A DNA stretch of 43,664 bases from an uncultured Bacilli bacterium (GCA_944329385.1 CALVIE010000004.1:1-43664), one strand, 5' to 3'. Positions 8,714 through 39,716 are shown, counted from the first letter of the stretch. The notes: a model not told the origin generated them from the letters alone. Numbers and translations: made by a program.

Positions 8714-9571
8714 CTAATTGTTTATATGATGATGTATTTTTGGTGTATTTTTGGTTATTTTAGCAAATGTATAGCCGTTTTCTTTAGCATATTTAATAAT
8801 ATAAGGCAAGGCTTCGACAGTAGTTTTTTTAGTAGCTAGATCATGCATTAAAACGATGTTAGTTCCACTATGTATTTTATTCACTACGTTATTATATATG
8901 CTTTCTTTTGTCTGGCTACCGCTGGCATCATTAGAATCAATGTTCCAGTCAAAGTAATAGAATGATTTTTCTGTTAATTTATTTGTTATTCTTGTAATGA
9001 TGTTTTGATTATATTTTTTTGATATGGTATTTGATGATCCACCTGGTAATCTTATAATTCTTGATTTGATGCCTGTGATTTCAAAAACTTTTTGTCTAAT
9101 ATCATTTAAGTCTTTGAAATAGTTTTCATCAGATGAATAAATATAACTATAGTTATGAGTAGATGTATGAAGTCCAATAGTATGGTTTTCTTTTTGCATT
9201 CTTCTTATTATATTATTATATTTATCTATTTGCCCTTTTGTGACAAAGAAAGTAGCTGGAATATTTTCTTTTTTTAAAATGTCTAATATATATTCAGTTA
9301 AATAACTTGGACCATCATCAAAGGTTAGATATATTGTTTTATTTGATATTATAGATGGATTAATATTTTGAACTTTGATTTTATCTGGTTTATAGTAGTC
9401 TATTTTTTGATTAAAAGTTATTTTGGGTTTTATTTGTTTAAATTTGGGTTTTGGACTATTTATTTTAATTATATAGTTTAAAATTATTAAAATATTAAAT
9501 AAAAGGCATATTATGATTATTATAGGTATTTTATATTTTGAAATAGTTTTTTTGATGTTTTTATACTGCAT
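8714..9571 (-). CDS. Membrane-anchored polysaccharide deacetylase (CE4/NodB)
   Basis: TM anchor; TFDDGP, HTSTH, RLPGG, DWNIDS, LMHD motifs; likely ATG at 9571 after AGGTGA (track start 9580). Confidence 0.93.
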   Translation of the reverse strand: MQYKNIKKTISKYKIPIIIIICLLFNILIILNYIIKINSPKPKFKQIKPKITFNQKIDYYKPDKIKVQNINPSIISNKTIYLTFDDGPSYLTEYILDILKKENIPATFFVTKGQIDKYNNIIRRMQKENHTIGLHTSTHNYSYIYSSDENYFKDLNDIRQKVFEITGIKSRIIRLPGGSSNTISKKYNQNIITRITNKLTEKSFYYFDWNIDSNDASGSQTKESIYNNVVNKIHSGTNIVLMHDLATKKTTVEALPYIIKYAKENGYTFAKITKNTPKIHHHINN

Positions 9572-9623
9572 ACTACTCACCTATTCACATTATACCTTAA
9601 AATATAAAGAAAAACAAAGGGAA

Positions 9624-10547
9624 TTAGTATTTTCCTTTTGTTTTTTTGCATATATTATTTCTTTCTATTATTAAATTTATTATTTCATTTATGTTTTCAT
9701 CATCTTTGGTTTTGACTGTTTTATTTAATTTTTCTAATATTGTATTTTCAATTTCTTTTGTAAATTCAGATGATACGGGATCTGAAAATTTAAGAGATTC
9801 AATTAAGTCTTGATTATTTATCTTTTTAGCGATGTTTAATGCTTCTTCGGTAAAGGTTTGAATATTATTTACTTTTTTATCATATTCTTTTAGTCTATTT
9901 TTGACGAAATATAATGGTAAGAATAAGATAAAATATATGATAGTTGTAACGATAGTTATGGTTAAAAGATTATTTATATTTAAGTAAGCATACATGTTTA
10001 TAGCAAATAGATAAATAATGGATAAGATATATAAGAAAGTTATATATACTGTTTTATCTTGATTTTTCTTTTTGTTTAGAATTAATATAACCAGCAAGGT
10101 TATAATTAGGGCAATTAATTCTATTATAATAGTAAGATAAAAATTATTATTGATATTTTCATCTATTATTTGATTTATGGTTATAACAGATGAAGGAATA
10201 TATATTTCGCTTGGCATTTTATCTAAACTCATAGAAATAATGGTTACAGGAAGATTTTCGATGGTTTCTGGTATTATTATTTGATTTTCATTACCTTTAT
10301 AACCAGTTACTTCTATTTGATTATTTTTGATGTTATAAGTGAAATTATCGTTACTTTTAAGTTCGTTTAGTTCACTATCTGATATGTTTTGATAATTAAA
10401 ATTATTTTTTTCGGCATAGTTTTGAGCGTTTTGATTATTATGTGAGGTTAGTTTAATGGAGTTATTATTAAACGGTTTATTTAGATATGTTATAGTTAAG
10501 AAAATGGCACTTATTAATATTATAATAACTGGAATGATTTTTTTCAT
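9624..10547 (-). CDS. Membrane protein with BspA/LRR_5-like cap remnants and C-terminal SDPVS...ERN..CK helical domain
   Basis: N-terminal TM, VTGYKG...IIIPETIENLPVT and IYIPSSV BspA-like pieces, 3 further TM helices; starts 1 bp after the SPFH stop. Confidence 0.65.
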   Translation of the reverse strand: MKKIIPVIIILISAIFLTITYLNKPFNNNSIKLTSHNNQNAQNYAEKNNFNYQNISDSELNELKSNDNFTYNIKNNQIEVTGYKGNENQIIIPETIENLPVTIISMSLDKMPSEIYIPSSVITINQIIDENINNNFYLTIIIELIALIITLLVILILNKKKNQDKTVYITFLYILSIIYLFAINMYAYLNINNLLTITIVTTIIYFILFLPLYFVKNRLKEYDKKVNNIQTFTEEALNIAKKINNQDLIESLKFSDPVSSEFTKEIENTILEKLNKTVKTKDDENINEIINLIIERNNICKKTKGKY

Positions 10548-10548
10548 A

Positions 10549-11697
10549 TTATTTTATTCTCCTTCCACATTTAGGACAAAATATGTTATCAGGTTCTAAT
10601 TTATGATGACAGTTTGGACAGGTTAAACTATTTTCTAATGAGGTTCCACATTTTTTACAAAAGCTATGATCTTTAGAGTTTGCAGTTCCACATTTTGGAC
10701 ATGTTTTAGTACTATTATCAATATTAGCGATAACACCTTGAACATTATTTCCAACTTTATCGCCTAAAGTGGTACCTATTCCGCTCATGATACCAAGTCC
10801 TACTCCAACGTTAGCAAATTCACCTACTCCTTCGTTAGCGGCCATTTTTTCTAAAGCATTATAAGATCTTTCTTCTTGATATGAGTAACCTTCTTGCGCA
10901 CGCTTTTTGGCTTCAGCTTCAGAGGCGATGACTTTTTGTTTGGCTTTGGTTTCTTCATCTATGATATTTACTTTTTGTCTTATTTCAGCTTCAGCTACTG
11001 AGACTGTTTGTTTGAAGAATAGTTCTTTAAATTCTAAGTATTGTTTATCATCTTCTGGTTTTAATATGGTAGTTACAAAGAATTTATTTAGTTTAATACC
11101 ATAGTCTGCAAAATCTTTATTTAAAAGTTTTTGAAGGGTATCACTAAATTCGTTTAAGTATTTATCAACTTCAAAGATACATATTTTATTTTCGGTTATG
11201 ATGTTTGCCATATAACTTTTAACTTTTGTTAATATGCATGATGTGAAGAAGTTATCAATTGTTTCATTATCGATTGTTTTTTTGATGCCAACTAGTTTTA
11301 TCAATAATTTTCTTGCGTCTTCGACAATGAAACGCATTTCACCGCAAGCTCCAATTTGAATTGGGAAATTATATTTAGGGTCTAGAAATTCAATTTTACT
11401 ACTGGTTCCCCATTTACTATTTTTTTCGGTTTTATCGATAAAATATACTTCACACTGAAAGGGACTTCTAAAACCGGTTGGAATATTTAAAAATGTTTTT
11501 AGAAGTGGAATATTATTGGTGGTTAAGGTATATTTACCCGGTCCAAATAAATCTAGAGCTTTACCATTTGAGAAAAATAATGCTTCTTGTGATTCATGGA
11601 CTATTAACTGTGACATTGTGTTAAAATTTGTTTTAGGATATTTCCATACTAGATTATCATCAGCTTTTACTTTTTTTATTACTTCAAATATTGCCAT
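10549..11697 (-). CDS. SPFH/band-7 domain protein (YdjI-like) with C-terminal double zinc ribbon
   Basis: SQLIVHESQEALF...GPGKYTLTTNNIP, CEVYFI, KWGT motifs; EAEA coiled coil; CPKC/CKKC/CPNC/CPKC. Confidence 0.88.
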   Translation of the reverse strand: MAIFEVIKKVKADDNLVWKYPKTNFNTMSQLIVHESQEALFFSNGKALDLFGPGKYTLTTNNIPLLKTFLNIPTGFRSPFQCEVYFIDKTEKNSKWGTSSKIEFLDPKYNFPIQIGACGEMRFIVEDARKLLIKLVGIKKTIDNETIDNFFTSCILTKVKSYMANIITENKICIFEVDKYLNEFSDTLQKLLNKDFADYGIKLNKFFVTTILKPEDDKQYLEFKELFFKQTVSVAEAEIRQKVNIIDEETKAKQKVIASEAEAKKRAQEGYSYQEERSYNALEKMAANEGVGEFANVGVGLGIMSGIGTTLGDKVGNNVQGVIANIDNSTKTCPKCGTANSKDHSFCKKCGTSLENSLTCPNCHHKLEPDNIFCPKCGRRIK

Positions 11698-11706
11698 AAT
11701 TTACCT

Positions 11707-13566
11707 CTACTTTCTTTTTGGAATATATTTTGAATATGTATATTCTCCATTTTGTGATTTATATCCAGAGTATACATAACCTGTTTTGTTTGGAATATAT
11801 TCTATTTTATACCAAAGGCCATCTTTATCTGGACAGTTATCTATATTTTTACATGACACTATTTCTAGTACATTATAATAATTTTCTGAAAAGACATAAT
11901 TTTGTTTTTGGCTACTGCTATCTGGATTTTTTCTAACATTTATATAATCGGTTGTTACTAATATTTGGTCTTCATTTGTGTTTTGCACGCCTATATTTTT
12001 CGGTTTCATGAATACGATGAATATTAAGGTGATTGATATTACTAGGGCAAGTATATAAGCAATTATTGGTGTTTTAGTATGTGGGTTATCTTCAAAATTT
12101 TTCTTTGTTTCTTTTTGTAATTGCTTAATTTCTTCAGCGTACTGTTTTTTGATAAGAGTTGTTTCGGCTTTTAATTGCCATTTAGAGTTCATTAATATTA
12201 GTATGATAGTGAAAATGTAAATACCTAGGATGTATGAGTTAAAAGTTAAGTTATATTCTTTATATATAAAGACTGAAAATAGTAAGAATATAAATAGATT
12301 TATAATATATAGATATTTAGATATTCTTCGGCTTTTTCGGCTACTAAAACCTAGTATATAAGCTATAAAATATATTATAGATGTCGTGCCAAAGATTATT
12401 ACGAGCTGGGCGGATAATAGTTTTATATATAAAGTTGGATTGTTTGAAACAAAAACAGAATTACTAATTAATATAATATAGAAAGTGGCTACTATAGCGG
12501 AAAGTAAAAATGTGATTATACTATAACTTTTTGGACATTTTTCTTTGTATATTTTAACTTCTACGCCTCTTTCTTCTTCCTCTTGCTCTTTTCTTTTTAA
12601 CTCTTCTTCTTGTTTTAACATTTCTTTGAATTTGCTGAATAATTCATCAGATATTTCTTCATTTTTTGGTTCTTTTTTGATTATTTTAGTAACGCCTCTT
12701 ATTAGGTCTTGAATAGCGCCTATTTTATTTAGATCTTGCCCTTGAAGAAGAATAAATTCATCAGGTAAGTCAGCGGCTGTCATGCCATAAAAACAAGGAA
12801 TTAAGGTTTTATTTCTGTCTTTTTTCATGATGTCTAGATAACGGCTCCACTCGTTTTTAACCCAAACTGAGTTCATGTTTTTTTGAGATGTTCCAATTAC
12901 CAGCATTACTTTTGAGGATTTTAGTGCTGAATAGATATATGGTTCATATTCTGAGCCTATTTTATCTTCTAAAGTAATTCTAGAGAAGAATACTTTATAG
13001 TTTAATTTAGTTAATTCGTTATATATTTCTTGGGCTATTACGGAATCTTTGGTTCGCCCACCATTTTTTTCATCAGTTTCTTTATAACAAATGAATATAT
13101 CGTATGGGCTTTCTTTTTCAGATATTTCTAATATTTCTTTTTGAATTCTATTAATTTCTTTAGCTTCTTTTTCATAGAGTTCTAATGTTTTACCATAAGC
13201 ATTTTTTATGATATGTTTATACTCTTGAGCAGTTAAAATTGATTCTTTATTAGCTTTATGACAAGTGGGAATTTTTTTATTTGTTTTAGGGTCATCGACA
13301 TATTCAACGCCGTATTTACAAAGTAAGATACCCCACTGCGCTTCTAACTGAGTATTATCAAGATTTAGTATAGATTCATATAGGCCTTGCGCTTTATCAA
13401 ATTCATTGGATTGTCTTAGTTCGTTTGCTCTATTATAAAGATTGATTATTTTTTCATTATCAGAGTTTGGCAAGGTCATAGAACTTTTACAGTATAGACA
13501 TTTACCGGTATTAGTACCTTTAATTGGCTCAATATCGCCGCCACACATTTTACATTTAAAGGTCAT
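11707..13566 (-). CDS. Zn-ribbon/TPR-like/TIR/multi-TM/SH3b protein, copy C
   Basis: CKMC..CLYC; TIR box YDIFICYK, KVFFS, WVKNEW; about 5 TM; SH3b INVRKNP...WYKIEY...GYVYS. Confidence 0.85.
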   Translation of the reverse strand: MTFKCKMCGGDIEPIKGTNTGKCLYCKSSMTLPNSDNEKIINLYNRANELRQSNEFDKAQGLYESILNLDNTQLEAQWGILLCKYGVEYVDDPKTNKKIPTCHKANKESILTAQEYKHIIKNAYGKTLELYEKEAKEINRIQKEILEISEKESPYDIFICYKETDEKNGGRTKDSVIAQEIYNELTKLNYKVFFSRITLEDKIGSEYEPYIYSALKSSKVMLVIGTSQKNMNSVWVKNEWSRYLDIMKKDRNKTLIPCFYGMTAADLPDEFILLQGQDLNKIGAIQDLIRGVTKIIKKEPKNEEISDELFSKFKEMLKQEEELKRKEQEEEERGVEVKIYKEKCPKSYSIITFLLSAIVATFYIILISNSVFVSNNPTLYIKLLSAQLVIIFGTTSIIYFIAYILGFSSRKSRRISKYLYIINLFIFLLFSVFIYKEYNLTFNSYILGIYIFTIILILMNSKWQLKAETTLIKKQYAEEIKQLQKETKKNFEDNPHTKTPIIAYILALVISITLIFIVFMKPKNIGVQNTNEDQILVTTDYINVRKNPDSSSQKQNYVFSENYYNVLEIVSCKNIDNCPDKDGLWYKIEYIPNKTGYVYSGYKSQNGEYTYSKYIPKRK

Positions 13567-13620
13567 TTAAAACACACTCCCACTACTTTTTCTATTATGA
13601 TTTTATCATATTTGTTTTTT
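13483..13620. repeat. 138-bp direct repeat shared with 15452-15589 (promoter, RBS and first codons of TIR copies C and B)
   Basis: Direct comparison by eye shows one mismatch; offset 1969 bp. Confidence 0.9.
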
Positions 13621-13628
13621 AAAAGCAA
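13600..13628 (-). promoter_or_regulatory. Sigma-A promoter of TIR copy C/SPFH/membrane operon
   Basis: TTGCTT, 17 bp, TAAAAT with extended -10 TG. Confidence 0.6.
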
Positions 13629-13632
13629 TTAC

Positions 13633-13661
13633 GCATAAAAAGCCTTTTATGGCTTTTTATG
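13633..13661. terminator. Intrinsic terminator after TIR copy B
   Basis: CATAAAAAGCC-N6-GGCTTTTTATG hairpin immediately after the stop at 13664. Confidence 0.75.
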
Positions 13662-13663
13662 TT

Positions 13664-15535
13664 TTATTTACTTTTTTTGAAAAATTTAACTTCCAAGTCA
13701 TCTGTTCTACTGTTTTTTTCATATATGTAGCCTACTTTATAACTTTTATCTATACTAGCATAATTTGTTTTGACTTTGTAAAATTTATCTGAAAATTTAT
13801 TTTTATTTACTTCTAATACAGTAAATACTGATTCTGTTGTTGGCCGTCCACTACTTAAATTTCGTTTTTTATCTAAGTATATTCTAAATCTATCATTTGT
13901 ATTTTTGGAAACTATTATTATTTGATCTTTGGTTTTATCACGAACTAATGGCTGACCGGTATTTAAAGAACTATATGTGTGAATAGCAATATATAATATT
14001 AATGTAATGGCAAATATTATTTTAATTATTTTGCCTTTTGATTTTTCTTTGGTTTTAAAATTTTCTTTAATATATTTATTTTTCTTTAATTGTCTATCTT
14101 TTTCTTCAGCATTCATTATTGATTTAGTACTAGAGTTTAGGGTCCAAGATGGATTTATAAATAATAAGATAAATTCTATTATATATATAAGACTAGTGAT
14201 TGCTATTATATTTAAGTCATTTTGAATTATTGGTAAAATAAAATTATATTCTTTATTTACAATGTTATTAATGATTGCGGAAATGCTTGGAATAAACTGA
14301 AAGAAAGTTAATAGAAAAGATATAGTAATTAATATATTTTTATATTTATAACTTTTTCTTTTAAAGATAAAGAAATAGCTTACTGCGAAAAATATCCATG
14401 AGACAAATAATGGCCAAACATTATTAAAATGAATATTGCTATAGTGTGCGAAGGCTAGACTTAAATATATATTGGAGCCTATAAAAATTAAAACGGTTAC
14501 AATGACATAATACCAAGTCGGCAATTTTTCTTTTAAGACAGTTACTTCATATCTGCCATTTCCTAAGTTTTTGGCATCTTCTAAAACGTTTTGAACTTTG
14601 GCGATGGTTTCTTTATCTATGCCTTCAATGTCGTCTACTTTAGTTTCTTCAATTATTTTTTTAACGCCTCTTGTTAAATCTTGCATGGCGCCAACTTTAT
14701 CCATTGATTGGGCTTGAAGCATGGCAAATTCTTCTGGAAGTTTATAGGCGTCTATTTTACTATATACGGGTATTAAAACTTTTGATTTGTCCTGATGCAT
14801 CATTTCTAAAAATCTACTCCACTCGTTTTTGACCCATACAGCACTAAAGTTTTCTTCGCTTGTTCCAACTACGAGCATTACTTTTGAGGTTTTTAAAGCT
14901 GAGTAGATATAAGGCTCATATTCTTTTCCAAGTTTATTTTCTAGGGTTATTTTTGAGAAAAATACTTTAAATCCAAGATTTGTTAGTTTATCATAGATAT
15001 CTTCGGCAATGACAGAGTCATGGGTACGATTTCCTTGTTTATCGGTTTCTTTATAACAAATGAATACATCATAAGGCTTTTCTTTTGAAGAAATTGATAG
15101 GATGTTTTTTTGAATATCATCAATTTGTTTAGCTTCTTTTTCGTAGAGTTTTAAAGCTTCACCATATGAATTTTTTTTGATATATTTAAAATCATTATCT
15201 AGTAAGATTGAATAGTCACTTGTTCTATGACATGTTGGTATTTTTGTTTTGGTTTTAGGGTCATCGACATATTCAACGCCATATTTACAAAGAAGGATAC
15301 CCCAGTGGGCTTCTGTTTCATTATTATCTATTTTTAATATGGTTTCATATATTTCTTTTGATTTATCAAATTCATTATTTAATCTTAAGTCATTGGCTCT
15401 ATTATATAGATTTACTATTCTTTCGTTATCGATATTGGGCAAGGTCATTATACTTTTACAGTATAGACATTTACCGGTATTAGTGCCTTTAATTGGCTCA
15501 ATATCGCCGCCACACATTTTACATTTAAAGGTCAT
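13664..15535 (-). CDS. Zn-ribbon/TPR-like/TIR/multi-TM protein with degenerate SH3b-like C-terminus, copy B
   Basis: First ~344 aa nearly identical to copy A; YDVFICYK, WVKNEW; C-terminal FTVLEV...FYKVKT...GYIY. Confidence 0.85.
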   Translation of the reverse strand: MTFKCKMCGGDIEPIKGTNTGKCLYCKSIMTLPNIDNERIVNLYNRANDLRLNNEFDKSKEIYETILKIDNNETEAHWGILLCKYGVEYVDDPKTKTKIPTCHRTSDYSILLDNDFKYIKKNSYGEALKLYEKEAKQIDDIQKNILSISSKEKPYDVFICYKETDKQGNRTHDSVIAEDIYDKLTNLGFKVFFSKITLENKLGKEYEPYIYSALKTSKVMLVVGTSEENFSAVWVKNEWSRFLEMMHQDKSKVLIPVYSKIDAYKLPEEFAMLQAQSMDKVGAMQDLTRGVKKIIEETKVDDIEGIDKETIAKVQNVLEDAKNLGNGRYEVTVLKEKLPTWYYVIVTVLIFIGSNIYLSLAFAHYSNIHFNNVWPLFVSWIFFAVSYFFIFKRKSYKYKNILITISFLLTFFQFIPSISAIINNIVNKEYNFILPIIQNDLNIIAITSLIYIIEFILLFINPSWTLNSSTKSIMNAEEKDRQLKKNKYIKENFKTKEKSKGKIIKIIFAITLILYIAIHTYSSLNTGQPLVRDKTKDQIIIVSKNTNDRFRIYLDKKRNLSSGRPTTESVFTVLEVNKNKFSDKFYKVKTNYASIDKSYKVGYIYEKNSRTDDLEVKFFKKSK

Positions 15536-15549
15536 TTAAAACACACTCC
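14507..15549. repeat. ~1.04-kb near-identical direct repeat, unit 1 (partner 16456-17498)
   Basis: Offset 1949 bp; about 9 substitutions seen by eye, all near the two ends. Confidence 0.95.
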
Positions 15550-15568
15550 CACTACTTTTTCTATTATG

Positions 15569-15597
15569 ATTTTATCATATTTGTTTTTTTAAAACAA
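15569..15597 (-). promoter_or_regulatory. Promoter of TIR copy B
   Basis: TTGTTT, 17 bp, TAAAAT with extended -10 TG; same leader as copy C. Confidence 0.55.
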
Positions 15598-15639
15598 TGA
15601 TTTATAAAAGTACGGTCAAAATACAAATATTGTTATAAT

Positions 15640-17484
15640 TTATTTTTTTTCTAATTTTTTAATATATTCGTGATTATCTCCACTATAAACATAACCAGTG
15701 ATGCCAGTTCCAGTTTTAATTTTATACCAATAGTTGTTTTTATATACTTTTTCTTTATCTAAAACTGTATATATTTCACCCTTTTTTACTTCGCCTAAAA
15801 TAATACTGTTATCGTCTGCACTTGGGGTTTGTCTTATTCTAATAAATTCATTAATTACTTCTATTTGTTCTTTTGATATGTCACGTTTATTGTGTTGATT
15901 ACTATTTATATTTATGAATATATTTATTGTAATAAATAGTATGGTTAATATGATTAAAATAGTTTTTATTAATTTGCCTTTTTGTTTTTCCTTAGTTTTA
16001 AAATTTTCTTTTATAGATTTGTTTTTCTTTAATTGATTGTCTTTTTCTTCAGCGGTCATTATTGATTTAATACTAGAGTTTAATGACCAAACTGGGTTTA
16101 ATGATATGAATATTATTTGAAAGATTGTAATAAGGCAAGCTATAACCATTTGTTCATAGTTTTCCATGATAAGTGTATAAGCGATTTTATATTCACGATT
16201 AAATAAATTAATCATAACATTTGTTAGAAACTGGTTAAAAAATATTATTAAAAAAATTATGGACAATGTGGTCATTACCTTTTTATATTTATATCTTTTT
16301 CTATTTAGACAAAAAATTAGTGATAATATGAAGAACATTAACGATATTAATAAAGAAATTATGCTTACTAAGTTTATGTTATTATTATAAATATATTGTG
16401 CGGCAAGAAATAAATATAGCCAGCCAACAAATAAGAATATGATAGCTTCTAATATATAATACCAAGTCGGCAATTTTTCTTTTAAGACAGTTACTTCATA
16501 TCTGCCATTTCCTAAGTTTTTGGCTTCGTCTAAAACATTTTGAACTTTAGCAATGGTTTCTTTATCTATGCCTTCAATGTCGTCTACTTTAGTTTCTTCA
16601 ATTATTTTTTTAACGCCTCTTGTTAAATCTTGCATGGCGCCAACTTTATCCATTGATTGGGCTTGAAGCATGGCAAATTCTTCTGGAAGTTTATAGGCGT
16701 CTATTTTACTATATACGGGTATTAAAACTTTTGATTTGTCCTGATGCATCATTTCTAAAAATCTACTCCACTCGTTTTTGACCCATACAGCACTAAAGTT
16801 TTCTTCGCTTGTTCCAACTACGAGCATTACTTTTGAGGTTTTTAAAGCTGAGTAGATATAAGGCTCATATTCTTTTCCAAGTTTATTTTCTAGGGTTATT
16901 TTTGAGAAAAATACTTTAAATCCAAGATTTGTTAGTTTATCATAGATATCTTCGGCAATGACAGAGTCATGGGTACGATTTCCTTGTTTATCGGTTTCTT
17001 TATAACAAATGAATACATCATAAGGCTTTTCTTTTGAAGAAATTGATAGGATGTTTTTTTGAATATCATCAATTTGTTTAGCTTCTTTTTCGTAGAGTTT
17101 TAAAGCTTCACCATATGAATTTTTTTTGATATATTTAAAATCATTATCTAGTAAGATTGAATAGTCACTTGTTCTATGACATGTTGGTATTTTTGTTTTG
17201 GTTTTAGGGTCATCGACATATTCAACGCCATATTTACAAAGAAGGATACCCCAGTGGGCTTCTGTTTCATTATTATCTATTTTTAATATGGTTTCATATA
17301 TTTCTTTTGATTTATCAAATTCATTATTTAATCTTAAGTCATTGGCTCTATTATATAGATTTACTATTCTTTCATTATCAATATTGGGCAAGGTCATTAT
17401 ACTTTTACAGTATAGACATTTACCAGTATTAGTGCCTTTAATTGGCTCGATATCGCCGCCACACATTTTACATTTAAAGGTCAT
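15640..17484 (-). CDS. Zn-ribbon/TPR-like/TIR/multi-TM/SH3b protein, copy A
   Basis: CKMC..CLYC; YDVFICYK, WVKNEW; about 5 TM; clear SH3b IRIRQTPS...GEVKKGEIYTVL...WYKIKT...GYVYS. Confidence 0.87.
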   Translation of the reverse strand: MTFKCKMCGGDIEPIKGTNTGKCLYCKSIMTLPNIDNERIVNLYNRANDLRLNNEFDKSKEIYETILKIDNNETEAHWGILLCKYGVEYVDDPKTKTKIPTCHRTSDYSILLDNDFKYIKKNSYGEALKLYEKEAKQIDDIQKNILSISSKEKPYDVFICYKETDKQGNRTHDSVIAEDIYDKLTNLGFKVFFSKITLENKLGKEYEPYIYSALKTSKVMLVVGTSEENFSAVWVKNEWSRFLEMMHQDKSKVLIPVYSKIDAYKLPEEFAMLQAQSMDKVGAMQDLTRGVKKIIEETKVDDIEGIDKETIAKVQNVLDEAKNLGNGRYEVTVLKEKLPTWYYILEAIIFLFVGWLYLFLAAQYIYNNNINLVSIISLLISLMFFILSLIFCLNRKRYKYKKVMTTLSIIFLIIFFNQFLTNVMINLFNREYKIAYTLIMENYEQMVIACLITIFQIIFISLNPVWSLNSSIKSIMTAEEKDNQLKKNKSIKENFKTKEKQKGKLIKTILIILTILFITINIFININSNQHNKRDISKEQIEVINEFIRIRQTPSADDNSIILGEVKKGEIYTVLDKEKVYKNNYWYKIKTGTGITGYVYSGDNHEYIKKLEKK

Positions 17485-17550: not shown

Positions 17551-18957
17551 TTAATTATTTACTCCATGAGTTATCATAGGAGTTGACATGGTTATTTTTT
17601 CAAAAGTATATCCGTTATTTTTACCATATCTGATGATATTTCTTAAAGCATCTTTAGTATGGGTCTTAATATCATGCATTAATACCATGTTACTTCTATT
17701 TTTGCTTAAATTTTTAATTACATTATTATAAACTCCTGAACTAGTTTTAGTACTTCCAGCATCATCTGAATCGATATTCCAATCATAATATCTATAACCT
17801 TTATTTACAACATCTTTAGTTAAAGTGCTCATAATACCTTTTGAATATTTTTTAGAAATTGTATTTGATGAACCACCTGGAAATCTAATTATTTTAGCTG
17901 TTTGTCCGGTTATTTTCTTTACTCTATCTTGAACTTTAAATAAATCATTATAATAATTATTTACTGATTTATAAAGATAAGAATAATCATGAGAAGCTGT
18001 ATGGAGTGCTACTGTATGACCTTCATTATATTCTCTTTTAATTAAATAGTCTGGTCCTTTTGCAGTAACAAAGAAAGTTGCTTTAACGTTTTCTTCTTTT
18101 AATATATCTAAAATGACATTTGTTGTTCCTTCATTTGGTCCATCGTCAAAGGTTAAATATATAACTCCTTTATTAGAACCTGAGTTAGAATTATAAGTTG
18201 GTTTAGATATTACTTTAACGGTTCTTTCTACTATTGTTTGATTGCCAGATGAATCTTTTACAGTATAAGTTATTTTATAAGTTCCTAATTTATTTGAGTT
18301 TACGGTGCCACTTGCTTTTACGTTATTTGTAATATCATTATCACAGTTATCAGTGGCGGTGTAGCCAGGATCAGTCCAAGGATTACCTAAATATAAGGTG
18401 ATAGTTTTATTACCTTTTAAAGTAATGACTGGGGATGTTTTATCTTCTTTGGTTATTGTTCTTTTTACTTTGGCAATATTTCCAGAAGAGTCTTTTACGG
18501 AGTATGTGATTATACCATCTTTGGTAGTTACTTTGACTTTTTTTGTTATATCACCATCATAATTATCTATAGCTTTATATCCTTCTTCTTTATATTCAGC
18601 GTTTGGACATATAGATACGTTTTCATTACCGGTTAAGGTTATGACGGGTTTTTCATCATCAATTAATTTAATTTTTCTAATTTTTTTAAAAGTAATACCA
18701 TTTATTTTAATTTCATAAGTTATTTTATAAGTTCCAAGTTTTTTTTGATTTATTTCATTTTTTACTTTGACTTTTTTTGTATAATCTTTTCCAAATTTAG
18801 TTACTTTATAGCCTGGTTCTTGATATTTTTGACCGTATTTTAAGGTTATAGTTTCATCATTTTTTAATTCAAATTTTGGGGGCCAAAAAAGAAATGATAT
18901 GATTGCAGTAAGTAATAATATAATAACAATAATTCCTATAACAAACTTCTTTTTCAT
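17551..18957 (-). CDS. Polysaccharide deacetylase (CE4) with three Ig-like DUF5011/HYR-type repeats
   Basis: TM anchor; repeated PVITL.G...GY.A.DN.D.DIT...Y.VKDSSGN units; TFDDGP, HTASH, RFPGG, LMHD. Confidence 0.93.
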   Translation of the reverse strand: MKKKFVIGIIVIILLLTAIISFLFWPPKFELKNDETITLKYGQKYQEPGYKVTKFGKDYTKKVKVKNEINQKKLGTYKITYEIKINGITFKKIRKIKLIDDEKPVITLTGNENVSICPNAEYKEEGYKAIDNYDGDITKKVKVTTKDGIITYSVKDSSGNIAKVKRTITKEDKTSPVITLKGNKTITLYLGNPWTDPGYTATDNCDNDITNNVKASGTVNSNKLGTYKITYTVKDSSGNQTIVERTVKVISKPTYNSNSGSNKGVIYLTFDDGPNEGTTNVILDILKEENVKATFFVTAKGPDYLIKREYNEGHTVALHTASHDYSYLYKSVNNYYNDLFKVQDRVKKITGQTAKIIRFPGGSSNTISKKYSKGIMSTLTKDVVNKGYRYYDWNIDSDDAGSTKTSSGVYNNVIKNLSKNRSNMVLMHDIKTHTKDALRNIIRYGKNNGYTFEKITMSTPMITHGVNN

Positions 18958-18981: not shown

Positions 18982-19599
18982 TTAATATTTCTTTTGATAT
19001 TCTAAGGCTTCATTTAATGAGTATTTACAGCCACAGTAGTTTTGACGATATAAGTCATATTCTTTAGCAAGTTCATTGCTTCTTTTATATCCTTCTTTTT
19101 TCTTGAAGTCAGAATACAGATATTTTATTTTATATTTTTCTTCTAAAGCTTTACCAATATTGTTTAATTTTTGACTATCTTTATGAGGACTTACAGATAA
19201 TGTGGTGGTGAAGTAATCAAAGTTGTATTTTTGAGCAAATTTAGCGGTTTTTTCTAATCTTAGGTAGAAACATTTAGTGCATCTTTTTCCGCCCTCTTTT
19301 TCATTTTCTAATCCTTTAGCTATTTCTTTAAATTCTTTACTTTGATAACCTATTTCTAATAATTTTACTTTTATTTTCATTTTTAAAACGGCTTCTTTTA
19401 AGGTATCAAAGCGTTTTAAATATTCTTTTTCAGGATAGATATTTGGGTTATAGTATAAAATAGTTATGTCAAAAAAAGGATAAAGTCTTTCTAATACTGA
19501 TGATGAACAGATGCCACAGCACGCGTGAAGTAATAGTTTAGGTTTTCCTTTTAAGCTTTTAATAGTTTTTTCCATGATTAAGTTATAATTTGTTTTCAT
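18982..19599 (-). CDS. queH: Epoxyqueuosine reductase QueH (DUF208)
   Basis: LLHACC..C, YNPNIYP, RCTKC, TTTLSVSPHK, YRQNYCGC. Confidence 0.92.
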   Translation of the reverse strand: MKTNYNLIMEKTIKSLKGKPKLLLHACCGICSSSVLERLYPFFDITILYYNPNIYPEKEYLKRFDTLKEAVLKMKIKVKLLEIGYQSKEFKEIAKGLENEKEGGKRCTKCFYLRLEKTAKFAQKYNFDYFTTTLSVSPHKDSQKLNNIGKALEEKYKIKYLYSDFKKKEGYKRSNELAKEYDLYRQNYCGCKYSLNEALEYQKKY

Positions 19600-19638
19600 A
19601 ATTTCACCTTTATTTCACGGAATATTATATCATAAATA

Positions 19639-21126
19639 TTATTTAATTAAAATATCGCCGGTCATTTCTTTTGGAATTGTTAACCCTAATATATATAAAA
19701 TAGTTGGTGCGATGTCAGCAAGCTTGCCACTTTTTAAATTTATGTTTTCTTTTGTAATTAAAAATGGGACAGGGCTTGAGGAATGCGAGGTGATGATATT
19801 TCCTTCCTCATCTTTCATATAATCACTATTGCCATGGTCGGCGGTTATTACAAGGGTTCCATTTAAACTTTGTATTTTTTCATAAATTTTTCCAATACAT
19901 GTGTCAATGGCTTCTAATGCTTTAATTGTAGCTTCAAAATTACCTGTGTGACCAACCATATCACCGTTTGCGAAGTTTAGAATTATAATATTGTAATCTT
20001 CTATTTTATTGAGTAAGGTTTCTGTTATTTCAAAGGCACTCATTTCTGGCTTTAGATCATAAGTGGCGACTTTTGGTGATGGAATTAATATTTGGTCGCA
20101 TTCTCTTAGTTTTTCTTTGTTTTGCCCATCAAAGAAATAAGTTACATGGGCGTATTTTTCGGTTTCGGCAATTCTTAACTGTTTTAAAGAATATTTTTCT
20201 ATTATTTTTCCTAGATAATTAGTGATAATGGGATGAGTGAAAAGTGATGAACCAATAACTTTTTCATCGACAGGCATCATTGTTACTAGTTTTAAATTAG
20301 GGATGAATATTCTTTCAAATTCGTTAAAGTTTTCATTTGTTAAAGCTGTGAACAGTTCTCTTAGACGGTCTGGTCTAAAGTTAAAAACTAAGATGCCATC
20401 GTTTGGTTTTATAATCCCATTTTTATGAGTAAATGGGGGGATGAATTCGTCTGTAATGTTTTGTTCATAATTTTGTTTAATTGTGGTTTCAATATCTTTT
20501 TCTTCATTTAGTTCAGTCATATTTTCATAAGCTTTTTGTATTCTATCCCAGCGATTATCTCTATCCATTGCATAGTATCTTCCACAAATGGTAGCAATTT
20601 GGCCGGTATTTGTTTCATTAATTTTATTTTCTAATATTTTGATAAATTTTAAAGCTTCGTGTGGTTTAGTATCTCTTCCATCAGTGAAAAGGTGATAATA
20701 AATATTATTTATTGATTCGTTTTTTAAAATGTCTATTAAACCTAGTAAATGATTTATGTGAGAATGAATTCCACCGTTACTAATTAAGCCACATACATGA
20801 AGGTCTGAGTGATATTTTTTTAAATGTTTTATGAGTGATTTATATTCTTTGTTTTTTTTGATTTTACCATTTTGAAGATCTTCGCCAATAATGTCTAAAG
20901 ATTGTTTAGGAATTCTACCAGTTCCGATGTTCATGTGTCCTACTTCACTGTTACCCATTTGTCCTTTTGGTAGTCCAACGGCGGGTCCGCTAGCTTCTAG
21001 TGTGGTATAGGGATATTTATTAAATAATTTATCTAGGTTTGGAGTATTAGCAGCATTTAAGGCGTTACCATCGGTAGATGGTCTTATGCCTACACCGTCT
21101 AAAATACATAATAATAGTGGTTTCAT
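19639..21126 (-). CDS. gpmI: 2,3-bisphosphoglycerate-independent phosphoglycerate mutase
   Basis: GQMGNSEVGH, GRYYAMDRD, AETEKYAHVT, DMVGHTG, TADHGN. Confidence 0.97.
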   Translation of the reverse strand: MKPLLLCILDGVGIRPSTDGNALNAANTPNLDKLFNKYPYTTLEASGPAVGLPKGQMGNSEVGHMNIGTGRIPKQSLDIIGEDLQNGKIKKNKEYKSLIKHLKKYHSDLHVCGLISNGGIHSHINHLLGLIDILKNESINNIYYHLFTDGRDTKPHEALKFIKILENKINETNTGQIATICGRYYAMDRDNRWDRIQKAYENMTELNEEKDIETTIKQNYEQNITDEFIPPFTHKNGIIKPNDGILVFNFRPDRLRELFTALTNENFNEFERIFIPNLKLVTMMPVDEKVIGSSLFTHPIITNYLGKIIEKYSLKQLRIAETEKYAHVTYFFDGQNKEKLRECDQILIPSPKVATYDLKPEMSAFEITETLLNKIEDYNIIILNFANGDMVGHTGNFEATIKALEAIDTCIGKIYEKIQSLNGTLVITADHGNSDYMKDEEGNIITSHSSSPVPFLITKENINLKSGKLADIAPTILYILGLTIPKEMTGDILIK

Positions 21127-21140
21127 TTTATCAGCTCCTT

Positions 21141-21902
21141 TTATTTATATAAATTTATAATGCTATCTAAATTTATTTGGAATAATAGTAATATTGTAGC
21201 CCCTGCGGCTAATAGTGGTCCAAAGGGAATTATATTATTTTTCTTTTTCCAAAGGATTATTAAGGCAACTGGTAAACCTATTAAAGAGCCTACGAATATA
21301 GATAGTATGGCTATTGGGTAAGTTAATACCATGCCAAAAATGAATAATAATTTAATATCTCCTCCACCCATTGATTCTTTTTTAAATAAAAAGTCCCCTA
21401 GTTTTTTTAATAAATACATGGTTATGAAAGCTAAAAGACCATTTAAAAGTGAATATAAAGCATTATTTAAGCCATTTATTATTAATATTTCAATAAAAAA
21501 TATTATACCAAATGTTATTAGAACTTCATCAGATATTATTAGATAGTGGTAATCACTGACGATGATAATAATCATTAGTGAAATAAAGGTTAAAGCAATT
21601 ATTAATTTTGGGGTTAGGCCGAATGAAATATAGCAAAGTACGAAAAGGATTCCCGTTAGTAGTTCAAATATTGGATAAAATAAGGAAATTTTTTGATGAC
21701 AATGTTTACATTTTCCTTTTTGAAAAATATATGATAAAACGGGAATTAGTTCTAGAGCGCTTAATTTATGATTACAATTCGTACAGTGGCTTGGTGGGAA
21801 AAGAATGGACTGTCCTTTTGGGAGCCTATAGCCTACTACATTGTAAAAGGAACCGAAAATAGTTCCTATTATGAATAAAAATATACCAATTATAATTTCC
21901 AT
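21141..21902 (-). CDS. pilD: Type IV prepilin peptidase (A24A, PilD/ComC)
   Basis: GSFYNVVGYRLP, two CxxC pairs, MGGGDIKL, IPFGP; likely ATG at 21902 after AAGGTGA (track start 21968). Confidence 0.93.
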   Translation of the reverse strand: MEIIIGIFLFIIGTIFGSFYNVVGYRLPKGQSILFPPSHCTNCNHKLSALELIPVLSYIFQKGKCKHCHQKISLFYPIFELLTGILFVLCYISFGLTPKLIIALTFISLMIIIIVSDYHYLIISDEVLITFGIIFFIEILIINGLNNALYSLLNGLLAFITMYLLKKLGDFLFKKESMGGGDIKLLFIFGMVLTYPIAILSIFVGSLIGLPVALIILWKKKNNIIPFGPLLAAGATILLLFQINLDSIINLYK

Positions 21903-21912
21903 AATATCACCT

Positions 21913-23643
21913 TTATGCTTGAATTTGACCGTACATTGAGAACATTGGTACAACGATTGATAAAACAATGATACCTACCATTACAGTTAAGAGAATTATT
22001 AAAGCTGGTTCTACAAATGTTTTGATTCTTGTAACAGAGTTTTTGTGTAAGTCTTGATAGTATGTTGAAATTTTATGCATCATTTCTGGGAGTTGACCAG
22101 TTCTTTCACCGGTAACAATCATTTCATATGCAGGGATTGGGAAAGACCATTCGTCTTTAAAAGCTGTTGAGATTGGTTTTCCTTGTGCAATATTATTAAT
22201 AGCGTTATATATAAGTGCACGATAGATTTCGTTATTGGTTACTTTATTTAATATTTCCATACTATCAGTTATGAAAACGTTATGAGATAATAATGAACCA
22301 AAAGTTTTGGAAAAAGTGGTTACTTCTTTATAGATGATAACATCACCGAATACAGGTAAGTGCATGGCAAGCCACTGAACAGTTTGTCTAAATGATTTAA
22401 CGTTTTTGTATAGATAAATACATAAAATTAAAATTATTACAACGCTAATACCAATATATATAATATATTTTTGTAAAAATTCACTTATAGCTAAAACGGC
22501 TAAAGTTATGCCTGGTATTTGAGCATTATCCATAGAATTATATATTTCAACAAATTTTGGAACAACATATAGCATTATGAATGTTCCGACTCCAATAGCG
22601 ATGACAAAGATTATAGTTGGATATAGCATAGCTGTAACCATCGCTTTTCTTGTTGCTTCTATTTCTGAGAAATATTCTTCCATATCATCTAATGTTTCTG
22701 GAAGTTCACCTGTCATTTCAGCTGTTCTAACCATATTTGTTAGAATACTTGGGAAAGCGTTTTCTTGTTTTGCTAGTGCTTCACTAAAACTTTTTCCGGT
22801 TGTTAAATCATAATTTAAGGTTGATAAGATTCTTTTATATTTTTTGTTTTTAAATTGTTTTGACAAAATGTTTATTGCTTCAGCAAGGGGGATACCAACT
22901 TTTAAATAAGTAGATACTTGGGCAAGAAAGAAAATCAAATCTTTTGTTTTGAATTTATCGTGTGATCCTCCTACACTACCATACATGGTGTTAATCCATT
23001 TATTTGTTTTTATGCTATAAACTTTGTTTCCTAAACTTTTTAAATAAGAGTGTACTTCAACTAATGAAAATGCGGAAAAATATCCTTTTACAACTTTACC
23101 TTCAGGATTTCTAATGATGTATTCATATGTTAGTTTTTCTTTGGTTTTTTGGGCTTCTGGTCCTTCGTAGTTTATAGTCATTTCTGGGGCATTTTGATAT
23201 TTATCTTTAACATTTCCTAAGCCTAGACTATTTTTAATTTTATCTGAAAAACTTAATACTTCTGTGCCAAAGCGATCTAATTTTTCTCCGGCTGTTTTAT
23301 CTTCTAATTTAGATGAATCTTGAATATAGTCGTTTAATCTTTTTTGAGCTTTTTTTTCTTGGCTTTCTTTTATTTTTTGTCTTGTTTCTTCTTCTTTTTG
23401 CTTTTTTAATGCTTTTTCTCTTTCATGTTCAGCTAGCAAAATGTCAGTTTTTTTATAGGTATTATCGGTTTTTTTTGTAGCGATTGTTATTTTATCTTTT
23501 TTATCTTTAGAAAATAATTTTACTAACATCGTTGGTAAGACGATTAGCCCTAAAAAAACATATTTTATAAATGAAAAAATGGCTTTTAAAACGACTAAAA
23601 TCCCTTTACCAATATAAGTAAACGGTGAAAGTATTTTTTTCAT
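21913..23643 (-). CDS. pilC: Type IV pilus platform protein PilC (T2SSF family) with long N-terminal extension
   Basis: Two T2SSF repeats (AEMTGELPETL; GERTGQLPEMM), AMLYP and FVEP motifs. Confidence 0.9.
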   Translation of the reverse strand: MKKILSPFTYIGKGILVVLKAIFSFIKYVFLGLIVLPTMLVKLFSKDKKDKITIATKKTDNTYKKTDILLAEHEREKALKKQKEEETRQKIKESQEKKAQKRLNDYIQDSSKLEDKTAGEKLDRFGTEVLSFSDKIKNSLGLGNVKDKYQNAPEMTINYEGPEAQKTKEKLTYEYIIRNPEGKVVKGYFSAFSLVEVHSYLKSLGNKVYSIKTNKWINTMYGSVGGSHDKFKTKDLIFFLAQVSTYLKVGIPLAEAINILSKQFKNKKYKRILSTLNYDLTTGKSFSEALAKQENAFPSILTNMVRTAEMTGELPETLDDMEEYFSEIEATRKAMVTAMLYPTIIFVIAIGVGTFIMLYVVPKFVEIYNSMDNAQIPGITLAVLAISEFLQKYIIYIGISVVIILILCIYLYKNVKSFRQTVQWLAMHLPVFGDVIIYKEVTTFSKTFGSLLSHNVFITDSMEILNKVTNNEIYRALIYNAINNIAQGKPISTAFKDEWSFPIPAYEMIVTGERTGQLPEMMHKISTYYQDLHKNSVTRIKTFVEPALIILLTVMVGIIVLSIVVPMFSMYGQIQA

Positions 23644-30038: not shown

Positions 30039-30132
30039 ATTATCACACCTTACACTATTTTTAATTATACAATAATATGTGCTTTTTAGCAATTATTCCA
30101 AGAAAAAAATCAGTTTTATAACCTGAAATTTT

Positions 30133-30438
30133 TTAACCATTAAATGGATTTTCTTTAGTGATTTTTTTCATTAGTACTTTACCATGTTTTGTAGGTGCGG
30201 GTTCAAAGAAAGATTCTTCTTCGGATTGTAAAATGCTATTAATAATGTCAGATGGTTTTGAAAAGATGATAACATTATTCCAATGTAGTATTAAGGAAGT
30301 ATCATCTAAGAGAGTTAAATTTACTTCATCTTGAGCATATTGGTTATAGTCTTTGATTTTTAAAACATAATTATTATTTTTTAACATTATTACGGCATAT
30401 TTTTCCTCTTTTTTTTCGCCTTTTTGATTATTTTTCAT
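30133..30438 (-). CDS. Hypothetical protein
   Basis: 101-aa ORF with strong AAGGAGG RBS. Confidence 0.65.
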   Translation of the reverse strand: MKNNQKGEKKEEKYAVIMLKNNNYVLKIKDYNQYAQDEVNLTLLDDTSLILHWNNVIIFSKPSDIINSILQSEEESFFEPAPTKHGKVLMKKITKENPFNG

Positions 30439-30483
30439 GTTTTTTCCTCCTTTTATAGTTTTTTTATAAATGTTAGTGAAAAA

Positions 30484-32115: not shown

Positions 32116-32356
32116 ATTTATCACCGATAATTTCTTTTAAAGCTATATAATATTTTTGGTCTATTCCTTGCCCTTGATATTCAACTTTTTCGTTTTGGGT
32201 GTATATTTTTATATAATATTTTTCACTGTCAAGGTAATTGATTTTATTGGTTTGTTTTTTAAAGTTTCTGATAATTCTTAAAAGAATTTCGATTTTTTCT
32301 TTTTCTTTGATGATGTACAAGTTATTGTTGATCTGTATTTCAATTTTGTTTACCAT
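32108..32356 (-). CDS. Hypothetical protein
   Basis: 82 aa, AAGGTGA RBS, TGTTATAAT extended -10 upstream; overlaps the next gene. Confidence 0.6.
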   Translation of the reverse strand: MVNKIEIQINNNLYIIKEKEKIEILLRIIRNFKKQTNKINYLDSEKYYIKIYTQNEKVEYQGQGIDQKYYIALKEIIGDKYV

Positions 32357-32392
32357 TTTCTCACCTTTTTTATTATAACAGAAAAGAACTAA

Positions 32393-39645: not shown

Positions 39646-39716
39646 GTATTTCACCCCTATAAACTAGTTTTTCAGATTTTTCATGTACCATTAAGAGTAC
39701 ATGTCGCCAATTTATA

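Follow-up and report, generated by a model that had tools for sequence, protein, structure and literature searches.

Three tandem TIR genes with a common architecture

The window analyzed here is a 43,664-nucleotide stretch of DNA from an uncultured Bacilli bacterium (GCA_944329385.1, CALVIE010000004.1:1-43664), whose genome, labelled G000, is a 1.35-Mb metagenome-assembled genome (MAG) of 99 contigs and 81% completeness. Positions 11707-17484 contain three intact, co-directional open reading frames (ORFs) on the minus strand, designated A (614 aa), B (623 aa), and C (619 aa). They are tandem paralogues of a very large, uncharacterized family of TIR proteins of the Bacillota. Coordinates of these genes and of associated features are listed in Table 1.

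All three proteins match the Pfam family TIR_2 (PF13676; E ~1e-10, 42.6-42.7 bits against a cut-off of 28). In a six-frame search of the genome the TIR_2 scores were 45.6-46.3 bits, and A, B, and C were the sole TIR domains found in this 81%-complete assembly. Pfam also reports a weak single TPR at residues 43-72 of each protein. The AlphaFold2 (AF2) model of A was built from a 51-sequence alignment, with a predicted local distance difference test (pLDDT) score of 82.7. It begins with zinc-ribbon strands (residues 11-31) and three helices (38-84), followed by a beta hairpin bearing the invariant residues Cys83, Cys102, and His103, and a long helix that continues to the TIR domain (157-300). 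Next come a disordered linker (301-316) and a further beta hairpin (322-337), ahead of the membrane part, in which four transmembrane (TM) helices occupy residues 340-461, with TM1 starting at residue 340, and a fifth spans residues 503-527. Between TM4 and TM5 lie a strand (467-477) and a helix (478-493), and the protein ends in a beta-rich domain (540-611). If the N-terminus is inside, the sequence and model would place the Lys-rich segments after TM2 and TM4 inside the cell and the SH3b domain outside. Cys-pair insertions in several ectodomains agree with this extracytoplasmic placement.

Foldseek returned 11 PDB matches to the model of A at E <= 0.001, all of them TIR domains. The model was matched through its TIR domain only, by SARM1, AbTir (7uxu; TM-score 0.74 on the target), TIR-STING, and plant TIRs. 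Glu238, within the motif WVKNEW, is invariant in 51/51 homologues, and in an alignment its counterparts in the TIR domains of Brucella TcpB and flax L6/L7 are likewise Glu. We take this position to be that of the catalytic Glu of TIR NADases, with which the PDB titles 'Sarm1 E642A' and 'RUN1 E100A' agree. Judged by alignment, the NADase-type Glu is intact in the cytoplasmic module of all three proteins. A profile search of the PDB with the query A3 found a designed TPR protein as its single match, and residues 1-152 matched just 'hypothetical protein' clusters in the ESM Atlas, some of which include a minority of zinc-ribbon-family members.

A recombination boundary at the first transmembrane helix

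A first-pass annotation of this DNA described A and B as nearly identical up to the motif KEKLPTWYY and abruptly divergent thereafter, with the break at nt 16456 in A and 14507 in B. This description proved accurate: the two proteins are identical at 341/343 residues up to the end of the motif, and residue 343 falls exactly at those positions. At the nucleotide level, codons 1-343 differ at 9 of 1029 positions (coding-sequence positions 36, 60, 105, 111, 933, 936, 948, 957, and 960), compared with 358 of 801 aligned nucleotides past codon 343. The maximal chi-square test places the break at aligned nucleotide 1029 (codon 343) with a value of 539, which was equaled in 0/200 permutations (their maximum was 11.8).

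Synonymous sites show the same step. Synonymous divergence (dS) between A and B is 0.036 over codons 1-343, whereas synonymous differences have reached saturation in TM1-4 and TM5 (proportion 0.78), and dS is 1.4 in the ectodomain. As protein constraint cannot hold synonymous sites, this step indicates that the two sides of codon 343 differ in age. The break is therefore a boundary of recombination or gene conversion and not a change in constraint alone.

A second tract of identity links B and C. It extends from -54 to +49 relative to the coding sequence, includes 54 nt of non-coding upstream DNA, and gives way to ~76% identity after +49. Near-identity with abrupt edges at both synonymous and non-coding sites, by which gene conversion is recognized, is thus found at the locus. 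The conserved upstream block is called a promoter by position only; a promoter scan did not exceed the level of shuffled sequence (62 sites vs 55.9 +/- 8.6).

Table 1. Features of the TIR gene array and its downstream neighbors, in window coordinates.
Feature	Position	Strand	Description and basis
Paralogue A	15640..17484	-	614 aa; zinc ribbon, TPR-like, TIR, 5 TM, SH3b; ORF, Pfam, AF2 (pLDDT 82.7)
Paralogue B	13664..15535	-	623 aa; A-type N-half, other TM bundle, divergent SH3b-like tail
Paralogue C	11707..13566	-	619 aa; older paralogue, N-half 63% identical to A/B; SH3b with Cys-pair insertion
Glu238 codon, WVKNEW motif	A 16771..16773; B 14822-14824; C 12850-12852	-	alignment
Constant cytoplasmic half of A, codons 1-343	16456..17484	-	breakpoint 16456; maximal chi-square
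Constant cytoplasmic half of B, codons 1-343	14507..15535	-	breakpoint 14507; bridged by X6 contig 13886-14911
821-nt identical tract, as assembled	A 16553..17373 = B 14604..15424	-	X1 variant bubble at A 16861-16912
Short B/C identical tract (-54 to +49 of coding sequence)	B 15487..15589 = C 13518..13620	-	mismatch list
GC-rich terminator-like hairpin, B-C spacer	13633..13662	.	consensus match only
Ectodomain of A (SH3b), residues 531-614	15643..15894	-	Pfam SH3_3 at 549-602; strands 540-611
Ectodomain of B (SH3b-like, sequence-divergent), residues 527-623	13667..13957	-	no Pfam match; alignment, model, VIA
Ectodomain of C (SH3b with CKNIDNC insertion), residues 524-619	11710..11997	-	SH3_3 25.8 bits; alignment
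Conserved cytoplasmic loop TM4-TM5 (A residues 466-504)	A 15973..16089; B 14030-14146; C 12073-12180	-	
SPFH382, Band_7_1 protein with two C-terminal zinc ribbons, YdjI-like	10549..11697	-	starts 9 nt past the C stop codon
TM307, 307-aa membrane protein after the SPFH gene	9624..10547	-	conserved part is the C-terminal 4-TM half

The boundary in independent assemblies

Near-identical halves in a MAG of 99 contigs might reflect an assembly artefact, in which repeats were collapsed or mis-joined, one consensus stands for two N-halves, or strains form a chimera. Contigs of the Logan collection do break at the repeat edges: in X1, the likely source sample, they pass each specific C-half and, from either side, end after 30 nt of the shared part. 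A graph with k=31 ends contigs in this manner at a true repeat. Also consistent with an artefact, five alternative letters occur inside the identical tract of X1, all in one 112-nt contig (16861-16912) of about half depth, and these letters are alleles of the A gene of the related genome G003. One copy may keep a small older patch that was flattened in the MAG assembly, in which case A and B would differ at 14 of 1029 positions instead of 9, with the same conclusion.

The remaining evidence argues for a genuine boundary. The five letters are the only alternatives over the entire 7.7 kb of X1, whereas a G003-like N-half would give 49 differing sites. Both junctions are bridged, with long flanks on both sides, by contigs from studies other than that of X1, namely X5 record 21 for A (1979 nt, window 15451-17424) and X6 record 27 for B (1026 nt, window 13886-14911). 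The same mosaics occur in proteins of other assemblies (P0015, P0017, P0010, P0011, G017_2), and A and B retain 9 copy-specific differences near the tract edges. Correcting for such a collapse would not make the divergence uniform, as it would stand at 14/1029 on one side of the break and 358/801 on the other. For these comparisons, X1 areas lacking contig cover (e.g. 11171-12969) and weak, short-sided joints in X3 were left unused, and the Logan depth sums over the repeat (12.3 vs 7.46 + 5.25) were not taken as copy-number evidence. We conclude that the A/B pattern is largely not an artefact of assembly, an origin that we consider very unlikely.

Mosaic relatives and conflicting trees

The comparison set comprised 23 close homologues from 6 related genomes and a protein collection. 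Nine of these have N-halves at least 94% identical to that of A (G000_B, G003_1, G017_2, P0010, P0011, P0013, P0015, P0017, and P0018). Their C-halves are 36-54% identical to A, save that of the A orthologue G003_1 (99%). Such high-identity N-halves with dissimilar C-halves indicate that the N-module of A has been joined to at least three different C-half types, and close relatives as a whole combine this module with at least four, so the C-termini attached to this module are far from invariant. By comparison, the single-copy orthologue in the complete genome G008 gives the ratio of undisturbed divergence, with its N-half 87% and its C-half 76% identical.

Maximum-likelihood trees of the two halves disagree. 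In the N-half tree, A, B, G003_1, and P0017 group together (support 97), and these four join P0010, P0011, P0018, and G017_2 (support 99) to the exclusion of G008_1 and P0004. In the C-half tree, A and G003_1 group with G008_1 and P0004 (support 97), and B lies far off with P0017 and P0018. Approximately unbiased (AU) tests rejected the clade of each half on the data of the other (p = 4.9e-7 and 2.4e-5). The TM1 boundary was used again between the A orthologues of G000 and G003: their N-halves have a dS of 0.21 (49 nt differences), compared with 0-0.09 for regions of the C-half and 0.03-0.09 for the neighboring genes encoding QueH, polysaccharide deacetylase (PDA), SPFH, and TM307.

This last comparison bears on a rather doubtful alternative, cassette replacement, in which N-halves are stable and TM-plus-ectodomain cassettes are swapped in from other strains by crossovers in the conserved half and downstream. 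C-half types are indeed common to several species, N-halves cluster by lineage, and segments of the locus are exchanged between species. As the sole process, cassette replacement leaves unexplained why the A orthologues of G000 and G003 differ more in the N-half than in the C-half and neighboring genes, and why the B/C tract covers the promoter and first 49 nt only. Cassette replacement and N-half conversion are not exclusive, and both leave the same boundary.

Selection was assessed from the ratio of nonsynonymous to synonymous divergence (omega, or dN/dS), using DNA of 6 relatives. The N-half gives values of 0.05-0.09 and TM1-4 gives 0.09-0.34; ectodomains compared within one type range from 0.14 to 0.8, where the highest values rest on 7-9 substitutions. 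Ectodomains within one type are under purifying or relaxed selection. The C-half types are old and internally conserved, and diversity at the locus stems mainly from re-assortment, gain, and loss.

These results refine the initial proposal that A, B, and C form a receptor repertoire diversified for different ligands. The modular part of that proposal stands, as a conserved signalling half is joined to a variable TM and ectodomain half. The reading of the break itself as ligand-driven diversification does not, because the step in dS is a boundary of age. A related explanation invokes diversifying selection alone, with A and B as old duplicates whose sensor halves were driven apart by new ligands and whose signalling halves stayed frozen. 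The strong difference between their C-halves (36% amino acid identity) and the many kinds of binding domain borne by the family speak for it. We nevertheless regard it as highly improbable: constraint on proteins preserves neither the synonymous sites of the A/B N-halves nor the 54 nt of non-coding DNA common to B and C, the trees of the halves conflict, and within-type ectodomain omega is never clearly >1.

Variable ectodomains and a conserved juxtamembrane loop

The C-termini of the three proteins differ strongly, as noted in the first-pass annotation. Pfam SH3_3 (PF08239) matches A with 32.2 bits (cut-off 27) and C with 25.8 bits, slightly under the cut-off, and the CKNIDNC insertion in C is real. 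In B, Pfam gave no SH3_3 match at E <= 1. The tail of B can be aligned to SH3b tails over its full length, and the AF2 model of its ectodomain (pLDDT 81.3) finds its best VIA matches among SH3b wall-binding domains of endolysins, lysostaphin, and autolysins. The Z scores, from 7.3 to ~5, are in the middling range but the matches are consistent, with 7.3-6.1 obtained against the SH3b domains of endolysins and lysostaphin. Foldseek found nothing for this ectodomain at E <= 0.001 (E values >= 0.2). Sequence and model together suggest that 'degenerate SH3b' is a fair description of the B tail.

Cys pairs recur in the ectodomains of other family members. A pair similar to that of CKNIDNC is present in the C-type gene of locus L049 (11513-11782), and pairs near the C-terminus occur in L039 (9843-10127) and L041 (7689-7985). 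These insertions possibly form outward-facing disulfide loops.

The loop between TM4 and TM5 stays similar where its surroundings do not, as had been noticed at first inspection. Residues 466-504 of A and 464-502 of B are identical at 33/39 positions, compared with 20-30% in the TM segments on either side. Its dS is 0.56 and its dN 0.096 between A and B, and the corresponding values for A and G017_D are 1.34 and 0.09. High dS combined with low dN indicates that the loop is kept by purifying selection and not by recent exchange, which agrees with the earlier view that intracellular contacts are conserved. In the model, the strand of the loop lies near the hairpin region that precedes TM1.

Copy-number change and exchange between species

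The N-module was found in 8/65 species genomes of the genus, always at one syntenic place, between PDA_up-QueH-GpmI and SPFH-TM307-PDA_dn. Copy number at this locus is not fixed and ranges from 1 to 3. A occurs alone in G003 and G008, and C alone in G022. G017 and G075 have a gene at the A position with another C-half type, in addition to C. G024 has C and a contig break within an A/B-like gene, and A, B, and C occur together in G000. In sample X5, A and C seem to be present and B absent. Deletion has left a scar in G003, where the first 38 nt of the A-B spacer are fused to the last 181 nt of C (93% identity) in a spacer of 213 nt.

Exchange between species is evident at the locus. Window positions 10150-13640, covering the 5' part of TM307, SPFH, and C with its upstream region, match G017, G022, and G024 at 94-98% identity, against 79-82% in the flanking DNA of these genomes. 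In G017 and G024, dS is 0.05-0.24 for SPFH and TM307, compared with 0.98-1.7 for GpmI, QueH, the PDA genes, and ABC585. The N-half of C has a dS of 0.11-0.25 relative to G017, G022, and G024. For the A-position genes of G000 and G017, dS is 0.21 in the N-half and 0.85-1.5 in the C-half. Between G000 and G003 (window 18982-21126 vs locus L014), dS is 0.03-0.09 from queH onward downstream and 0.60 in the adjacent gpmI. This jump points to a recombination boundary in the queH-gpmI interval; the entire ~10-kb locus may thus be the product of a recent exchange.

Several further features of the region were recorded. The TIR-SPFH block is flanked by two polysaccharide deacetylase paralogues (8714-9580 and 17551-18957) that are 52% identical over 213 aa, the upstream one bearing three bacterial Ig-like domains. 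G008, G017, G022, and G024 have an additional ORF of 204-210 aa (L012 9725-10354, L013 12147-12761, L015 7164-7796, and L017 1142-1756) that separates the upstream deacetylase gene from the TIR array; it is absent from the window and from G003. In the complete, TIR-negative genome G069 (L108 10754-11200), PDA_up, an intact 148-aa ORF, and PDA_dn occur in this order, and the 148-aa ORF corresponds to the 4-TM C-terminal half of TM307 (residues 170-305, 56% identity). The 416-aa TM307 homologues of G017 and G024 (L013 5855-7105, L016 7385-8635) align to TM307 in two separate segments of 284 and 132 aa, suggestive of an internal duplication. Core genes surround the locus at 21141-23643 and 27099-39654, including those for a prepilin peptidase, a T2SS-F-like protein, SMC, and an ABC-F protein. 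Two ORFs of 1208 and 1211 aa at 32393-39654 are assigned to rpoB and rpoC solely from their length and location.

An SPFH partner and a large family

The gene following C encodes SPFH382, which matches the Band_7_1 family (PF13421; E 4e-40) and, in Pfam, Zn_Ribbon_1 and DZR. The next gene encodes TM307, for which we found no Pfam, PADLOC, or NCBIfam family. In the genus, 9/65 genomes have the SPFH gene, among them all 8 with TIR genes, a co-occurrence that, given the relatedness of these genomes, should not be read as a statistical test. In the ninth, G011, the copy is 51% identical and lies at another site, where no neighbor from the reference locus was detected.

The family extends well beyond the genus. 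At least 7999 proteins match at E <= 1e-5, and among the matches listed most combine TIR_2 and SH3_3 in 600-800 aa and none is named. At least 575 N-module loci are present in species-representative genomes, and the neighborhoods of the best 80 of these, from uncultured Bacilli and many Clostridia, were counted; two of the 80, L100 and L101, are overlapping pieces of one contig. A same-strand SPFH homologue is present in 56/80 loci, within 1 kb in 50 of them. The 24 loci without an SPFH homologue include many that are cut by contig ends. Tandem N-module ORFs occur in 27 loci (18 with two, 7 with three, and 2 with four), and a TM307 homologue in 20.

We also catalogued the C-terminal domains fused to the N-module, as the first-pass annotation had proposed. 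The loci yielded 117 family ORFs with an N-module alignment of at least 200 aa, of which 105 were complete and were scanned. Their tails contain SH3_3 (20), DUF6273 (19), RCC1_2 (17), TPR_2 (23), LRR_5 (5), LRR_8 (3), and CIDE-N (3), with single cases of WG, RHS, or FNIP repeats. The N-module is hence fused to SH3b, LRR, RCC1, DUF6273, and TPR tails across the Bacillota. Most Clostridial forms have 0 or 1 predicted TM helix. DUF6273 turns up in papers on phage receptor-binding proteins and diversity-generating retroelements. Two individual loci were also recorded. The Christensenellales contig represented by L100 and L101 has six N-module genes around one SPFH gene, including one for a 2329-aa protein, and the family gene at L044 1561-2976, split into ORFs of 183 and 288 aa, is probably a pseudogene.

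Proposed function

Considering the architecture, breakpoint, drop in dS, conflicting trees, deletion scar, interspecies exchange, and SPFH linkage documented above, we favor a reading in which tandem TIR paralogues with a constrained cytoplasmic module undergo recurrent recombination of the 5' half, ending at TM1, and act as SPFH-linked envelope sensors. We assign this reading a probability of about 0.7. In this reading, two processes shape the array. The cytoplasmic module (omega ~0.05-0.09) is under far stronger purifying selection than the half containing the TM bundle and ectodomain, and recombination or gene conversion hits the conserved 5' half repeatedly, both between paralogues and between species, ending where nucleotide homology ends at the first TM helix. 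The outcome is one N-module re-assorted with several old, internally stable TM-plus-ectodomain types, with duplication and deletion shifting copy number from 1 to 3.

As a set of membrane envelope sensors, the array would bind wall material or a wall-associated ligand through the outer domains. The TM bundle and the conserved juxtamembrane loop would couple the outside signal to the TIR module, whereupon clustering of the TIR domains may lead to NAD+ consumption or to a nucleotide signal. The SPFH protein would scaffold the assembly or restrain and control it. The likely setting would be surveillance of phage or envelope damage.

A number of points weigh against this reading. The A/B conversion could have run in either direction, and at 7/9 of the sites that differ between the two, it is B and not A that has the G003 allele. 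The five-letter patch in X1 implies that the assembled identity of A and B is perhaps slightly overstated. The clades compared in the AU tests were named after the trees were seen, and the trees come from a quick LG+G4 search from which the near-duplicates P0013 and P0015 were dropped. Within-type ectodomain comparisons gave no region-wide positive selection; between types, comparisons are saturated, such that diversifying selection is neither demonstrable nor dismissible there. The surroundings are of a housekeeping kind (QueH, GpmI, SMC, RpoB/C, ABC transporters) and not a defence island. Matches to known defence profiles are weak and confined to the TIR region: that to the PADLOC candidate PDC-S66 is partial, covering positions 118-247 of a 282-position profile (E 3.7e-9 in B, 1.2e-6 in C; A unmatched at E <= 0.01), and the NCBIfam Thoeris match (ThcB4, 21.8 bits; NF058526, 20-22 bits) lies far below the 220-bit cut-off. 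Among the neighboring ORFs we saw no separate effector gene.

The label of a conflict or immune locus, which the first-pass annotation had applied, is accordingly not borne out by the genomic setting. An immune or envelope-sensing role is plausible on sequence grounds, in view of the patchy distribution, interspecies transfer, tandem variable sensors, and invariant NADase-type Glu. A phage or conflict-related role in particular we put forward tentatively.

A non-immune function in envelope stress or membrane organization is also conceivable, although we consider it unlikely. The locus would then be a module like PspA-YdjGHI, in which the SH3b domain is a wall tether, the TIR domain is a scaffold or metabolic regulator, the variation reflects wall chemistry, and the zinc-ribbon membrane proteins anchor the soluble SPFH protein. 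SPFH382 resembles YdjI in combining Band_7_1 with C-terminal zinc ribbons. In B. subtilis, the soluble YdjI relies on the membrane proteins YdjG and YdjH to reach the membrane, and loss of these proteins disturbs wall synthesis (PMC8581546; PMC13713150). The core chromosomal surroundings and the two flanking polysaccharide deacetylases would also suit such a function. On the other hand, PspA (PF04012) was not found in the 81%-complete G000, in a search whose control found PspA in 9/14 genomes. In addition, presence in 8/65 congeners together with exchange between species is unusual for housekeeping genes, the NADase-type Glu is invariant, and the tails of the family include LRR, RCC1, and DUF6273.

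Most known bacterial immune sensors are cytoplasmic. A widespread TIR family with outside sensors would raise the question of surface sensing in bacterial immunity or envelope surveillance. The locus is also a clean natural experiment, in which signalling and sensor halves have separate histories and a fixed junction at TM1; this junction sets module boundaries for domain swaps. It further shows how a gut bacterium with a small genome gains, shuffles, and loses receptors, and its YdjI-type SPFH partner ties the system to a membrane-stress module studied in B. subtilis.

Comparison with known systems

In the literature on bacterial TIR proteins with SH3b, transmembrane, SPFH/Band_7, zinc ribbon, or tandem paralogues, we found no description of a TIR-SPFH system. 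PMC7159879, the one paper found to contain TIR, SPFH, and zinc ribbon together, was rejected as a prior description, as the three appear there in unrelated contexts. The main text of a preprint (10.64898/2025.12.03.692087), taken apart from its supplements, does not mention SPFH and refers to TM helices only in effectors.

The PspA-YdjGHI (SamGHI) system offers the closest parallel to the SPFH gene and its neighbors. Each combines a gene for a soluble Band_7_1 SPFH protein, with a zinc finger at its C-terminus, and adjacent membrane-protein genes, here C and TM307; one of the B. subtilis membrane proteins begins with a zinc-ribbon-like Cys pair (PMC8581546; PMC13713150). The zinc-ribbon membrane proteins of the present locus differ in having a TIR domain and an extracellular SH3b domain, in occurring as 1-3 recombining paralogues, and in their gene order.

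The TIR module itself resembles AbTir, BtpA/TcpB, Thoeris ThsB, and SARM1 in its fold and in the Glu at the catalytic position. Unlike in Thoeris, there is no ThsA-type effector nearby, the NCBIfam model scores far under its cut-off, and the TIR domain is predicted to be membrane-tethered with a domain outside. Toll-like and IL-1 receptors are similar by analogy only: they share a ligand domain outside, a membrane passage, and a TIR domain inside, and some members of the present family have LRR tails. They differ in that the TIR domain is N-terminal here (the reverse order), five TM helices replace one, and the TIR domain is of the NADase type. Signs of common descent of the entire architecture were neither looked for nor found. 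A more speculative extension, to which we give less than even odds by a wide measure, would make the array the bacterial equivalent of a repertoire of Toll-like receptors. A TIR module homogenized by recombination would serve a long-lived library of sensors (SH3b here; LRR, RCC1, and DUF6273 elsewhere), and surface events such as phage adsorption, lysin attack, or wall damage would lead to NAD+-based signalling or cell arrest on an SPFH scaffold. Under this extension, recombination at the TM1 boundary would let a lineage exchange its sensors and leave the signalling interface undisturbed.

The immunity genes of type VII secretion systems in Firmicutes provide a parallel for the evolution of the locus. 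They are likewise non-identical tandem paralogues, which vary in number and composition through recombination between copies (PMC9484751 / 10.1101/2022.01.07.475358). The proteins are unrelated to those studied here, where recombination is limited to one half of the gene and re-assorts two modules. What this locus adds is a mechanism for the constant and variable pattern, namely a fixed recombination boundary at TM1, accompanied by a deletion scar, change in copy number, and exchange between species.

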